This document shows, piece after piece, positions 31,394 through 63,905 of a stretch of 64,000 nucleotides of DNA (the first letter of the stretch is position 1; every line of letters starts with the position of its first letter). A program made the translations under genes and the position numbers. A model generated the notes under the pieces. It was not told where the DNA came from. It did not search any database and was given only the letters and a program-made list of their open reading frames with translations. Location of the stretch: assembly GCF_054482525.1 (NCBI RefSeq), contig NZ_CM137006.1; one strand, given 5' to 3'.

Positions 31394-31422
31394 AGAGCCA
31401 GCACCCGCTGGCTCTTTTTTTA
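31394..31422 (+). terminator. asnS rho-independent terminator
   Basis: Stem AGAGCCAGC/GCTGGCTCT with 4-nt loop followed by a T-run. Confidence 0.7.
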
Positions 31423-34446: not shown

Positions 34447-34472
34447 AAGCCCGCTGAAAAGCGGGCTTTTTT
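34447..34472. terminator. Bidirectional terminator between convergent aspC and gloC
   Basis: Stem GAAGCCCGCT/AGCGGGCTT with GAAA loop, T-run on + and A-run (T-run on minus strand) flanks. Confidence 0.7.
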
Positions 34473-57748: not shown

Positions 57749-58513
57749 TTACTTACCAGAGGCGATACGATCACGTATGTGTTGCGCACGCTCTGTTGAT
57801 GGTGGGTGAGAGTCAAACATGGACTGGGTACGACCGCCATCCAGGCTGGCCAATTTTTCAAAGCTGCCAACCAGCCCCTGGGTGCTGATGCCACGTTTCT
57901 TCAACAGATCAAAGGAGAAATCATCTGCTTCGGACTCTTTATCGCGGGAGTATTTAGCATTGATCGCGCCTTCTGCGATATCACCTAATTGTGAGCGAGA
58001 AAGCTGGGAAGCCACACCGCTGGTAGCGGAAATCGCATCACGTGCGGCAACGATCGCATAAGAAGCTTTCATTTCAGCCAGCGAGTGACCCAACGCGACG
58101 TGGCCCAGTTCATGACCCAGAACGCCTTCAATTTCGTTGTCGTTCATCATGTCCATCAGGCCACTGTAGACACGAACACAGCCGTTCGCCATCGCCCATG
58201 CGTTGACGTCGCTGGTCATATAAACCTTATAGTTGACCGGCGTGCCATTAATATTGTTACCCAATGCTTTGGCGATTTTTGCCAGACGTTTACCGTACTT
58301 GCTGGATTTACTTGCGACTTGATTGCCGCTGTCCATTTCGGCACAGCCCTGATTGGCAATCGCTTTTGCATCAGCATCGCTTAACGTTGCTGCTTTATAG
58401 GCATTTAAACCTGAGCTGATAGCCATATTGGTATCAATACCGTGGGTATTTTGACACCCTGTCAGTAATGCTGCAGAGGCCGCAATCGCCAGCAGTAATT
58501 TAGTATTCTTCAT
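57749..58513 (-). CDS. ycaL: M48-family zinc metallopeptidase lipoprotein YcaL
   Basis: ORF-track 57749..58537 trimmed to MKNTKLLLAIAASAALLTGC (lipobox); HELGH zinc motif. Confidence 0.85.
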   Translation of the reverse strand: MKNTKLLLAIAASAALLTGCQNTHGIDTNMAISSGLNAYKAATLSDADAKAIANQGCAEMDSGNQVASKSSKYGKRLAKIAKALGNNINGTPVNYKVYMTSDVNAWAMANGCVRVYSGLMDMMNDNEIEGVLGHELGHVALGHSLAEMKASYAIVAARDAISATSGVASQLSRSQLGDIAEGAINAKYSRDKESEADDFSFDLLKKRGISTQGLVGSFEKLASLDGGRTQSMFDSHPPSTERAQHIRDRIASGK

Positions 58514-58681
58514 GTGAATCATCCGTTGATTAATCATATATAAATATTATGTATCAATAGCTTACATTGACAAACGACGCTACCATTAATCAAAATGACT
58601 CACAAGGTCCGAAAAAAAACGCCGGCAATGTACCGACGTTTTGATAAAGAAAGATTTGGCTATTTATTGCACGTTGTTCAT

Positions 58682-59965
58682 TCAGGCTGCCTGGCTAATC
58701 CGCGCCAGCTGCTCAAAATAATCCGGAAATGTTTTGGCCGTGCATTTGGGATCAAGAATCGTCACTGGTGTATCTGACAACGCCACCAGCGAGAAACACA
58801 TCGCCATCCGGTGATCATTGTATGTCGCGATCTCGGCAAAGTTCAGTTTTTCCGGTGGAGTGATACGAATGTAATCGTGCCCCTCTTCTACTTCCGCACC
58901 AACTTTACGCAGTTCTGTTGCCATCGCAAACAGGCGATCGGTCTCTTTAACACGCCAGTTATAGATATTGCGCAGCGTGGTGGTGCCTTTTGCAAATAAC
59001 GCCGCCGTGGCAATGGTCATCGCCGCATCGGGAATATGGTTCATATCCATATCAATAGCGTTCAGTTCACCACGCGTGCAGGAAATATAATCGTCGCCCC
59101 AGCAAATGGTCGCGCCCATTTTTTCCAGCACATCAGCAAAGCGAATATCACCCTGCATACTGTTACGTCCAATACCGGTCACTTTTACAGTGCCGCCTTT
59201 GATTGCTGCTGCTGCCAGAAAGTAAGAAGCGGAAGATGCATCGCCTTCGACCAAATAAGTACCCGGAGACTGATAAGACTGCCCGCCTTTAACGACAAAT
59301 TGTTGATAGTGCTGATTTTCAATTTCAACACCAAACGTCTTCATCAGATTGAGTGTGATGTCGATGTAAGGTTTAGAAACCAGATCGCCTTTAATACGAA
59401 TCACCGTATCTTCCGGCGCAAGAGGCGCAGTCATTAACAGTGCGGTGAGGAACTGGCTGGAAACGGAGCCATCAACTTCAACGTTGCCGCCAGTAAAGCC
59501 GCCCTGTAAACGCAATGGTGGATAATTTTCTTGTTCCAGGTAAGTGATCTTCGCCCCGCCCAGGCGCAGCGCATCCACCAGATGACCAATGGGGCGTTCT
59601 TTCATACGCGGTTCACCGGTCAGCACAATATCATTGCTACCCAGACAAAGAGCTGCCGCCAGCGGACGCATTGCCGTTCCGGCGTTACCGAGGAACAACT
59701 CCAGGGCACCTTCTGCGTGTAATGGACCGCCGTTACCGATGATTTCGCAACGCGTACGATCAGCTGAAAGCGTATAGCTTACCCCTAACGCTGCTAATGC
59801 ATTCAGCATATGGCGCACGTCATCGCTATCCAGCAGATTGGTTAATACTGTTTTGCCGTGTGCTAATGCCGCCAGCAATAAAGCGCGGTTAGAAACGCTC
59901 TTGGAACCGGGCAGATTAATAGTGCCATCGACACGAGCGATGGGTTGTAACGTCAGGGATTCCAT
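58682..59965 (-). CDS. aroA: 3-phosphoshikimate 1-carboxyvinyltransferase (EPSP synthase) AroA
   Basis: ORF track, 427 aa; starts [23 protein letters not shown]. Confidence 0.95.
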
Positions 59966-59988
59966 GAACTCAACTCTCTACAACAGAA

Positions 59989-60016
59989 ATAAAAACCCCA
60001 CAGGCTGGCTGTGGGG
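59989..60016 (-). terminator. serC-aroA intercistronic hairpin (partial terminator)
   Basis: Minus-strand stem CCCCACAG/CTGTGGGG followed by a U5 run, between the serC stop and the aroA start. Confidence 0.5.
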
Positions 60017-60035
60017 ATTAAGCAAAATTTCGGCA

Positions 60036-61124
60036 TTAGCCGTGACGGCGTTCGAACTCAACCATGAAGTCTGTCAGCGCTTTAACGCCTTCCAGCGGCA
60101 TGGCGTTATAAATAGACGCGCGCATTCCGCCGACCACACGGTGACCTTTCAGCGCATGAAGGCCAGCAGCAAAAGACTCTTCAAGGAACAATTTGTCAAG
60201 CGCACTGTCCGCCAACTGGAACGGCACGTTCATCCGCGAACGGTTAGCTTTCGCCACGTCATTGCGGTAGAAATCGCTGTTATCAATCACCCCATACAGC
60301 AGTTCTGCTTTTTGCTGATTGATTTTATCCATTGCAGCTACACCGCCGTTCGCTTTCAGCCATTTAAAGACCAGACCAGACAGATACCAGGCAAATGTCG
60401 GCGGCGTGTTAAACATGGAGTCGTTATCGTTGAGAATGGAATAATCCAGAATCGACGGACACGCGATATTCGCTTTGCCCAGCAAATCTTCACGAACGAT
60501 GACGATTGTCAGGCCAGCCGGGCCGATATTTTTCTGCGCGCCAGCGTAAATTACACCATAACGGCTGACGTCAATCGGACGGGAAAGAATGGTTGAAGAG
60601 AAGTCGGCGGCGACCACCACATCTTTGCCGAAGTCTGGCGTTTCGTCGATAGCGATACCGTCGATGGTTTCATTCGGGCAGTAATGCATATAAGCAGCAT
60701 TATCAGAGAGTTGCCATTCGCGCATTGGCTTAACCGCGCGCAGACCATCAACAGTCACTTTGGCGTCGAAGACATTAGGCGTGCAGTATTTTTTCGCTTC
60801 TTTAATGGCACTTGCCGCCCAGTAACCGGCATCAACATAATCTGCGGTGGTTTTATCACCGAGAATATTCAGCGGAACAGCAGCAAACTGACCGCGACCG
60901 CCGCCATGGCAGAACAATACTTTGTAGTTGGAGGGGATGTTAAGAAGATCGCGAAAATCCTTCTCGGCTTCCTCTGCAACCTGAATGAACTCTTTGCCAC
61001 GGTGACTCACTTCCATCACCGACGTACCAAGACCGTTCCAGTCGCGCAGTTCCTGTTGAGCCTGTTTAAGCACCTCTGCCGGTAGCATTGCCGGACCAGA
61101 ACTAAAATTGAAGATTTGAGCCAT
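60036..61124 (-). CDS. serC: Phosphoserine aminotransferase SerC
   Basis: ORF track, 362 aa; starts [15 protein letters not shown]. Confidence 0.95.
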
Positions 61125-61322
61125 TTCCCCTCACCACGTTGCGTTGCTATTAACCCGCGGTCAATCGATTGCGACCACAGGTAATACATTATTCCTGTGG
61201 CTATCGGTTTTATCATTCAGTGACACACATCGCAATGAGTAAAACCGTTGAGGGCAAAAATGTGGCTTGCATCACACAAAAGAATCTCTCGGATTATTAG
61301 CAAAAAGCCGATGTTTTTACTG

Positions 61323-62015
61323 TCAGGTCACCCGTTTTGCCCGACTTGCCTTCGTCCATTCTGGATTTGCACAGCGCGGACATAATTGTTTTTCCCCCGC
61401 TTTCATATGAATGATTTCACTACAACGAATACAGGCATAGTCCGCCGACTCGGGTACCACTTTGTAACGCTGCGTACAATCACTGGGTAAAATAAGTAAA
61501 CCCGGTTTCACCTTGTCATCTTCAAAGAAATAGACACTGATTTGCCCGTTGGTTTCGAGAATCGCCAGACGTACCTGCCCCAGCTGCTCCACGCCACGCA
61601 ATCGTAGCTCCATAAAGAACTCAAATTCCGTCATGTTGGAGTTATTGAGTTTCGACCAGGCCAGCTCGCCATCTTCAATAATGACAACTGGCTTGCCTTC
61701 CAGAAGATCTTCCAGTTTTTCACTGTGCGCCATCAACCACATTACCAGGCGGTATAACAACGCCAGAGTAATAAAGACGATAAGTACCGGGACCATCGGC
61801 ACATCATCATAAAACGCCACATCTCCCGCCGCTGATCCCAGCGTCAGAATGATTAAAACTTCAAACAGCGACATCTGCCGCACACCGCGTCTTCCGGTCA
61901 TTTTGAGGAACAAAAAGACCAGTACAAAGGTATAAAGACTACGTAGTGCAACTTCGCCAAGGAAATCAAAAGGCACTTTATCAAATGCCATACGGTGGAG
62001 ATCGAACGCCTTCAT
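61323..62015 (-). CDS. ycaP: DUF421-family inner-membrane protein YcaP
   Basis: ORF track, 230 aa; N-terminal TM helices; C-terminal CxxC...CxxC pairs. Confidence 0.8.
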   Translation of the reverse strand: MKAFDLHRMAFDKVPFDFLGEVALRSLYTFVLVFLFLKMTGRRGVRQMSLFEVLIILTLGSAAGDVAFYDDVPMVPVLIVFITLALLYRLVMWLMAHSEKLEDLLEGKPVVIIEDGELAWSKLNNSNMTEFEFFMELRLRGVEQLGQVRLAILETNGQISVYFFEDDKVKPGLLILPSDCTQRYKVVPESADYACIRCSEIIHMKAGEKQLCPRCANPEWTKASRAKRVT

Positions 62016-62144
62016 TTTTATGCTCTTAACGTGGTTTATCCGCTAAAAGCATAGTCAACAGTTCATCGGCATGGCGGCGGTGATAGCGCCTTTGAGATAA
62101 AACCCGTATTATTGCGCGCTTTCCGTACGACTAAAGTGATTTTC

Positions 62145-63905
62145 ATGACGCAAACATTTATCCCCGGCAAAGATGCCGCTCTGGAAGATTCCATCGCTCG
62201 CTTCCAGCAAAAACTTTCAGACCTCGGCTTTCAGATTGAAGAGGCCTCCTGGCTGAATCCCGTGCCTAACGTCTGGTCTGTACATATTCGCGACAAAGAG
62301 TGCGCACTGTGTTTTACCAACGGTAAAGGCGCAACCAAAAAAGCGGCGCTGGCTTCTGCACTCGGTGAATATTTCGAGCGTCTGTCTACCAACTACTTTT
62401 TTGCTGACTTCTGGCTGGGCGAAACCATCGCCAACAGTCCATTCGTGCATTATCCCAACGAAAAATGGTTCCCACTGACCGAAAACGACGATGTACCAGA
62501 AGGGCTGCTCGATGACCGTCTGCGCGCATTTTACGATCCGGAGAATGAACTGACCGGCAGCATGCTGATTGACCTGCAATCCGGTAACGAAGATCGTGGT
62601 ATTTGCGGTCTGCCGTTTACGCGTCAGTCCGACAATCAGATCGTTTATATTCCGATGAATATCATTGGTAACCTGTACGTTTCTAACGGTATGTCCGCTG
62701 GCAATACCCGAAACGAAGCACGCGTTCAGGGGTTGTCCGAAGTTTTCGAACGCTACGTGAAAAACCGCATTATTGCTGAAAGCATCAGCTTGCCGGAAAT
62801 CCCGGCAGACGTGCTGGCGCGTTACCCAGCGGTGGTTGAAGCCATCGAAACGCTGGAAGCAGAAGGTTTCCCAATCTTTGCTTATGATGGTTCGCTTGGC
62901 GGCCAGTATCCGGTGATTTGCGTGGTACTGTTCAATCCTGCTAACGGTACCTGCTTTGCCTCTTTCGGTGCGCATCCTGATTTTGGCGTAGCACTGGAAC
63001 GTACCGTGACCGAGCTGCTGCAAGGTCGTGGCCTGAAAGATTTGGATGTGTTTACTCCGCCAACCTTCGATGATGAAGAAGTTGCTGAACATACCAACCT
63101 CGAAACGCACTTTATCGATTCCAGCGGTTTAATCTCCTGGGACCTGTTCAAGCAGGATGCCGATTATCCGTTTGTGGACTGGAATTTCTCCGGCACTACG
63201 GAAGAAGAGTTTGCTACGCTGATGGCTATCTTCAACAAAGAAGATAAAGAAGTTTATATTGCCGATTACGAGCATCTGGGCGTTTATGCTTGCCGAATTA
63301 TCGTGCCTGGCATGTCCGATATTTATCCGGCTGAAGATCTGTGGCTGGCGAATAACAGTATGGGCAGCCATTTACGTGAAACGATTCTTTCGTTACCAGG
63401 CAGCGAGTGGGAAAAAGAAGATTACCTGAACCTCATCGAGCAACTGGATGAAGAAGGTTTTGATGACTTTACCCGCGTGCGTGAGCTGTTGGGTCTGGCG
63501 ACCGGGTCGGATAACGGTTGGTACACCCTGCGTATCGGTGAATTAAAAGCCATGCTGGCGCTGGCTGGTGGCGATCTGGAACAGGCTCTGGTCTGGACCG
63601 AATGGACGATGGAGTTTAACTCATCAGTATTTAGTCCGGAACGCGCCAACTATTATCGCTGCCTGCAAACGTTGTTATTACTGGCGCAGGAAGAAGATCG
63701 CCAGCCGCTGCAATATTTGAATGCGTTTGTTCGCATGTACGGCGCAGATGCCGTGGAAGCCGCCAGTGCGGCAATGAGCGGCGAAGCGGCGTTTTATGGC
63801 TTGCAACCAGTAGATAGCGATCTGCACGCGTTTGCTGCACATCAGTCGTTGTTGAAGGCCTACGAAAAGCTGCAGCGCGCCAAAGCAGCATTCTGGGCAA
63901 AATAA
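62145..63905 (+). CDS. ycaO: YcaO-domain protein (586 aa)
   Basis: ORF-track 62112..63905 trimmed to MTQTFIPGKDAALEDSIARF; divergent from ycaP. Confidence 0.9.
   Translation: MTQTFIPGKDAALEDSIARFQQKLSDLGFQIEEASWLNPVPNVWSVHIRDKECALCFTNGKGATKKAALASALGEYFERLSTNYFFADFWLGETIANSPFVHYPNEKWFPLTENDDVPEGLLDDRLRAFYDPENELTGSMLIDLQSGNEDRGICGLPFTRQSDNQIVYIPMNIIGNLYVSNGMSAGNTRNEARVQGLSEVFERYVKNRIIAESISLPEIPADVLARYPAVVEAIETLEAEGFPIFAYDGSLGGQYPVICVVLFNPANGTCFASFGAHPDFGVALERTVTELLQGRGLKDLDVFTPPTFDDEEVAEHTNLETHFIDSSGLISWDLFKQDADYPFVDWNFSGTTEEEFATLMAIFNKEDKEVYIADYEHLGVYACRIIVPGMSDIYPAEDLWLANNSMGSHLRETILSLPGSEWEKEDYLNLIEQLDEEGFDDFTRVRELLGLATGSDNGWYTLRIGELKAMLALAGGDLEQALVWTEWTMEFNSSVFSPERANYYRCLQTLLLLAQEEDRQPLQYLNAFVRMYGADAVEAASAAMSGEAAFYGLQPVDSDLHAFAAHQSLLKAYEKLQRAKAAFWAK

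Follow-up and report, generated by a model that had tools for sequence, protein, structure and literature searches.

The window, which is the whole 64-kb stretch of DNA analysed here, is a piece of the E. coli chromosome; the 601 nt surrounding the hairpin described below are 100% identical to strain 1190, and are found in 5425 of 5426 complete E. coli genomes. The genes of the minus strand run in the order ycaP, serC, aroA, ycaL/loiP and cmk. For the two genes of interest, SerC scores 557 bits against the NCBIfam equivalog model NF003764 (cut-off 253), and AroA scores 467 bits against the NCBIfam equivalog model TIGR01356 (cut-off 287). The elements of the junction between them are as follows.

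60036-61124, minus strand: serC, 3-phosphoserine/phosphohydroxythreonine transaminase, 362 aa, upstream gene of the operon (open reading frame and RefSeq annotation)
59966-60035, minus strand: serC-aroA intercistronic gap, exactly 70 nt (K-12 equivalent 958742-958811)
59996-60016, minus strand: terminator-like hairpin, with 5' arm CCCCACAG (60009-60016), loop CCAGC (60004-60008) and 3' arm CUGUGGGG (59996-60003)
59987-59995, minus strand: U-tract UUUUUAUUU, 9 nt, beginning at the base next to the stem (K-12 about 958782-958790)
59974-59978, minus strand: GAGAG, likely Shine-Dalgarno sequence of aroA, 8 nt before the ATG
58682-59965, minus strand: aroA, 3-phosphoshikimate 1-carboxyvinyltransferase, 427 aa, downstream gene of the operon (open reading frame and RefSeq annotation)

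Written as RNA, the gap is UGCCGAAAUUUUGCUUAAU-CCCCACAG-CCAGC-CUGUGGGG-UUUUUAUUU-CUGUUGUAGAGAGUUGAGUUC, followed immediately by the AUG of aroA. Over 90 nt spanning the gap the window has a single base difference from K-12 MG1655, and this lies outside the hairpin and its tail. We infer that GAGAG is the likely ribosome-binding site of aroA; in an alignment of 20 species of Enterobacteriaceae the GAGA before the ATG is invariant, and the G that follows it is nearly so. An antisense open reading frame of 252 aa with a TTG start (59838-60596, plus strand) spans the start of aroA, the gap and the 3' end of serC, and is probably a chance frame opposite coding sequence.

The stem of the hairpin consists of 8 perfect Watson-Crick pairs, 6 of which are G-C, closed by a loop of 5 nt; it begins 19 nt past the stop codon of serC and is separated by 30 nt from the ATG of aroA. 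An earlier note on this DNA had described two co-directional genes 70 nt apart with a hairpin and a U-run between them at 59989-60016: the arrangement is exactly as stated, and that interval takes in the whole hairpin and all but two of the 9 bases of the tail. Intrinsic terminators are recognized by a G-C-rich stem of ~5-14 bp with a loop of 3-8 nt, and by a U-rich run of ~7-9 nt directly 3' of the stem on the transcribed strand; the hairpin has the first of these features and UUUUUAUUU provides the second, while the opposite strand of the hairpin carries no U-rich tail. On this pattern the 3' end of the RNA would be expected to lie within the U-tract (59987-59995). The 38-nt core formed by hairpin and tail folds with an energy of −14.1 kcal/mol (z = −3.6; none of 200 shuffles was as stable), and the hairpin is retained in both the minimum-energy and the centroid folds of a 141-nt context.

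The level at which such structures are expected by chance was estimated with a strict pattern (perfect stem of 8 bp, of which 6 or more are G-C, closed by a loop of 3-8 nt, with T5 within 6 nt). Only 3 sites satisfy it on both strands of the window. Dinucleotide-shuffled windows average 0.01 such sites, and the pattern is present in only 2 of 200 shuffles. The two sites other than the serC-aroA hairpin, together with a further hairpin downstream of aroA, are listed here.

31395-31414, plus strand: strict-pattern site after asnS, one of only two others in the window
34448-34467, plus strand: strict-pattern site after aspC, the second of the two
58612-58642, minus strand: likely terminator at the end of the operon, formed by AAAACGUCGGUA-CAU-UGCCGGCG and a U8 tail, roughly 40 nt past the stop codon of aroA

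The asnS and aspC sites lie 15-17 nt past the stop codons of their genes, on either side of ompF, and are ordinary gene-end terminators. A score of the d'Aubenton-Carafa type is +32 for the serC-aroA site and +44 and +30 for the other two; since these two are gene-end terminators, the serC-aroA hairpin is, as far as its sequence features go, indistinguishable in form from accepted terminators. Terminator prediction, which had been suggested as a check, places the serC-aroA site first among the terminator-like sites between 56 and 64 kb. The hairpin at 58612-58642 is not listed by the simple terminator scan, despite a stem of 12 pairs that is present in both the minimum-energy and the centroid folds. 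A promoter-like site for ycaL (58573 to 58546) comes after it.

Within E. coli, conservation is concentrated in the structured core. The 38 nt of hairpin and tail are found at 99% identity or better in 5405 of 5426 E. coli records, and the whole 70-nt gap at the same level in 4056 of 5426; in the variants that were sampled, substitutions are confined to the stretch before the stem and to the vicinity of the ribosome-binding site of aroA. REP/BIME elements are defined by many copies sharing a consensus; the median number of places at which the core occurs in an E. coli genome is one (maximum two), and identification as such a repeat was rejected on this ground. Five matches to the gap fall on E. 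coli records labelled as plasmid, and some genomes have two copies. In E. coli P31_YH1_02.21 (NZ_CP085063.1) an IS200C element with tnpA is inserted in the gap (locus L085, 1501-2290), exactly past the UUUUUAUU of the terminator; the remaining part of the gap and aroA continue beyond the insertion sequence, whose left end bears a G-C-rich hairpin of its own, AAAACCCCCAGCUAGGCUGGGGGU.

We have also compared the junction across species, by means of a scan of 80 aroA loci with one genome per species. A serC gene lies upstream of aroA on the same strand in 53 of the 80 loci, which are essentially all those of Enterobacterales, and was not seen in this position in the loci of Vibrio, Pasteurellaceae and Orbaceae. 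In the 20 species of Enterobacteriaceae the gap measures 67-83 nt and the hairpin can be aligned: the CCCC/GGGG base of the stem is invariant, a conserved T-rich run directly abuts the stem, and 94% of the stem cells pair, against 38-66% in controls in which the partner was slid. One stem pair shows a G-C/A-U exchange in 5 of these species, as expected of a compensatory change. The distance from the stop codon of serC to the hairpin is conserved at 15-21 nt, and that from the end of the stem to the start of aroA is 29-36 nt. The flanks of the stem show no sequence conservation. Beyond Enterobacteriaceae, in more distant families, the gap contains hairpins of unrelated sequence; Pantoea stewartii, for instance, has GACUCCGCC...GGCGGAGUC, and Morganella has CGGACCCGGG...CCCGGGUCCG. 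Overall, a strong hairpin (−12 to −24 kcal/mol) is present in all 50 of the Enterobacterales gaps of 40-400 nt; the median z-score for the fold of the whole gap is −2.37, with 34 of the 50 values below −2 and none above 0. Because a near-invariant core is set between variable flanks, one pair shows compensatory change, and non-homologous hairpins occupy the same gap, the comparative evidence indicates that the hairpin is under selection.

The same data bear on the suggestion that the hairpin is a product of chance or a functionless relic. No support for this suggestion was found, and it is strongly disfavoured, to the point of being extremely improbable, by the 0.01 strict sites expected in a shuffled window, by the near-invariance of the core with respect to its flanks in 5,426 E. 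coli records, and by the covarying pair and the recurrence of hairpins in the gap despite the turnover of their sequences across Enterobacterales. They bear likewise on the idea that pairing in the hairpin region hides the ribosome-binding region of aroA and thereby controls its translation. Such pairing is in fact seen in the minimum-energy fold of the E. coli gap, in which GCUUAAU, upstream of the hairpin, is paired with AGUUGAGU just before the AUG; however, the upstream partner is not conserved even within Enterobacteriaceae, the helix is missing from the consensus fold, and the fold of the whole 70-nt gap is only marginally better than those of shuffled sequences (z = −2.0). The masking helix was thus rejected on the evidence of the alignment and consensus fold, and translational control of this kind is of very low probability.

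Some Enterobacterales with a direct serC-aroA junction depart from the general pattern in the tail. In 41 of the 50 gaps a U-rich tail comes after a hairpin whose energy is −8 kcal/mol or lower, compared with 15.5% of shuffled gaps. The 9 gaps whose hairpin has no U-rich tail belong to 4 Photorhabdus (loci L038, L041, L045 and L047), Xenorhabdus (L043), Rosenbergiella (L039), Acerihabitans (L063), 1 Pantoea (L026) and 1 Yersinia (L033); as an example, one of the Photorhabdus gaps reads CCGGGAAC...GUUCCCGG and then AAUAUUCAG. In these lineages either termination would not be intrinsic, or the stem would have another role.

This observation is the argument for a reading in which the hairpin is primarily an element of RNA stability, blocking 3'-to-5' exonucleases and protecting the serC segment after termination or endonucleolytic cleavage, so that differential decay, rather than termination, sets the serC:aroA ratio. 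The stem is indeed conserved more widely than the U-tract (hairpin in 50 of 50 gaps, U-rich tail missing in 9). On the other hand, a pure exonuclease block has no need of the conserved T-rich run that abuts the stem in E. coli and in the 20 Enterobacteriaceae; furthermore, a terminator hairpin also shields its own 3' end, which makes it difficult to tell the two roles apart. We consider this reading unlikely, and it is compatible with termination at the same site. A related and more doubtful proposition, raised because all 50 gaps keep a strong hairpin while 9 lineages lack the U-tract, is that the stem may be selected for a function that replaces termination or comes on top of it, such as protection of the 3' end of serC mRNA or a processing signal. 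Given the stems devoid of a U-tract in some lineages, there is a small chance that the stem has an additional role in RNA stability or processing.

Exceptions to the direct junction were recorded as well. In Budvicia aquatica a gene of the Asp/Glu racemase family lies between serC and aroA (locus L037, 1720-2415), and in Edwardsiella ictaluri (L076) the two genes are 1082 nt apart, with no long open reading frame in the gap. In a Psychromonas metagenome-assembled genome a class I/II aminotransferase gene occupies the space between them (L075, 1332-2435), and no hairpin was found after serC. It has been proposed that serC, hisHb, aroA, cmk and rpsA are what is left of an ancestral supraoperon, and that hisHb was lost in the E. 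coli lineage (PMC1173090). The Psychromonas arrangement fits the proposal, and its aminotransferase may be the ancestral hisHb. As judged from these loci, the hairpin appears to be tied to the direct serC/aroA junction of Enterobacterales.

The interpretation that we favour, with a probability of about 0.85, is that the hairpin and U-tract act as an intrinsic (Rho-independent) terminator within the serC-aroA operon, one that is constitutive and leaky. The flanking genes are, on published evidence, transcribed together from the upstream promoter: a serC-aroA bicistronic mRNA is known, in which aroA is co-transcribed with serC (PMC11878033), deletion of serC lowers the expression of aroA (PMC3010111) or may perturb it (PMC6883840), and strains with the deletion need aromatic supplements (PMC3010111; PMC6883840). 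As aroA is co-transcribed with serC and no promoter-like site was recognized in the 30 nt between the hairpin and its ATG, the terminator, if it works, must be leaky; by the same logic termination must be partial because aroA depends on the serC promoter, and leakiness is required because one of the co-transcribed genes is needed for growth without supplements. The earlier proposal that partial termination tunes the serC:aroA ratio is thus supported, as a prediction, by the terminator features, by their conservation and by the published co-transcription. One result points weakly in the opposite direction: the curated Term-seq list compiled by Adams et al. 2021 for three conditions, a thresholded list that retains only the strongest ends, contains no 3' end for serC, for aroA or at K-12 positions 95877x-95879x, and this absence is weak evidence against termination.

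In mechanistic terms, RNA polymerase would start at the serC promoter, transcribe serC and, past its stop codon, make the 8-bp G-C-rich hairpin and then UUUUUAUUU. The hairpin would fold in the RNA exit channel while a weak rU:dA hybrid occupies the active site, and most complexes would release a serC-only mRNA at the U-tract. The remaining polymerases would read through, ribosomes would load downstream at GAGAG to make AroA, and the long transcript would be ended by a second terminator after aroA. The net effect would be a fixed step-down, with less aroA mRNA than serC mRNA from a single promoter. We infer both that termination takes place at this hairpin and how efficient it may be, and also that the 19-nt spacing would keep the hairpin clear of a ribosome terminating at the serC stop codon.

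If the step were not leaky, the hairpin would be a complete terminator and aroA would be expressed from a promoter of its own. The hairpin and U-tract do match the asnS and aspC gene-end terminators in apparent strength; such a promoter, however, would have to be accommodated where 30 nt free of promoter-like sites separate the stem from the ATG, and it is at odds with the reported co-transcription and with the reduced aroA expression and aromatic requirement that follow deletion of serC (PMC11878033; PMC3010111; PMC6883840). This arrangement is, in our estimate, highly improbable.

A regulated attenuator, in which a leader peptide, a riboswitch or a protein or sRNA switch senses serine, aromatic or vitamin B6 status, has the attraction that the uncoupling of two genes could benefit a mixed-function operon, and the conserved spacing between the serC stop codon and the hairpin (19 nt here, 15-21 nt in Enterobacteriaceae) can be read in its favour. 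Attenuators and riboswitches are distinguished by a mutually exclusive antiterminator, a leader peptide or an aptamer, and none was recognized here. Searches for an antiterminator or alternative fold gave no competing pairing in the 141-nt context, and the 20-species consensus fold consists of the hairpin alone; the flanks of the stem, as noted, are not conserved. An Rfam scan of positions 58000-62500, with E up to 10, returned only chance-level matches and no family at threshold, the best match at the hairpin being ClpQY_promoter (16.7 bits, with the cut-off at 42; E = 2.8). An attenuator of this type is very unlikely, and conditionally regulated readthrough is a remoter possibility than selection of the stem for protection of the serC mRNA or as a processing signal.

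The consequence of a leaky terminator at this position would be that one promoter delivers unequal doses of two enzymes, that of serC, which serves the synthesis of serine and vitamin B6, and that of aroA, which serves the synthesis of aromatic amino acids. There is also a practical side to it, as deletion or replacement of serC, or the placing of cassettes at the serC-aroA junction, alters aroA expression in strain engineering. The element itself is an ordinary one and already known, an internal terminator between serC and aroA having reportedly been described in the 1980s-90s; what is new here, a modest addition, is the strict invariance within E. coli together with the turnover of the hairpin across Enterobacterales.

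With regard to the system in K-12, Duncan and Coggins in 1986 (Biochem J 234:49) reportedly defined serC-aroA as a mixed-function operon and noted, in the interval separating the genes, a structure resembling a terminator. Man, Pease and Winkler in 1997 (J Bacteriol 179:3458) are said to have used RNase T2 mapping to find that 80-90% of the mRNAs carrying serC contain that gene alone, to have ascribed these to likely Rho-independent termination in the gap before aroA, and to have placed the end of the co-transcripts at another terminator after aroA; their mapping would thus support an RNA 3' end at the hairpin described here. The hairpin at 58612-58642 agrees with the second terminator of that report. 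The K-12 terminator and the one in the window occupy the same locus and have the same sequence, with no difference in the element. A full-text literature search for a terminator or readthrough at serC/aroA returned nothing relevant.

Other known systems share some of these features. The REP hairpins between malE and malF are intercistronic repeated elements without a U-tract, which act through RNA decay. They resemble the serC-aroA hairpin in that a stable hairpin lies between cistrons and the upstream product exceeds the downstream one; they differ from it in that the serC-aroA hairpin is single-copy (a median of one place per genome) and has a canonical U-tract. The leaders of trp and his and riboswitch terminators likewise place a terminator hairpin and a U-run upstream of a biosynthetic gene, whereas the serC-aroA junction has no leader peptide, antiterminator fold or Rfam match. 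Leaky internal terminators are common in E. coli operons, and among 1,774 mapped terminators 264 are internal to operons, with partial readthrough (Conway et al. 2014, PMC4161252). One of the terminators in that study is located between sdhCDAB and sucABCD; it is accompanied by a secondary promoter and its use is condition-dependent. No promoter-like site lies between the serC-aroA hairpin and aroA. The likeness lies in the mode of action, as the sdh-suc terminator is intrinsic, stands between co-transcribed genes and lowers downstream coverage without abolishing it (PMC4161252), which is what the serC-aroA hairpin would be expected to do.
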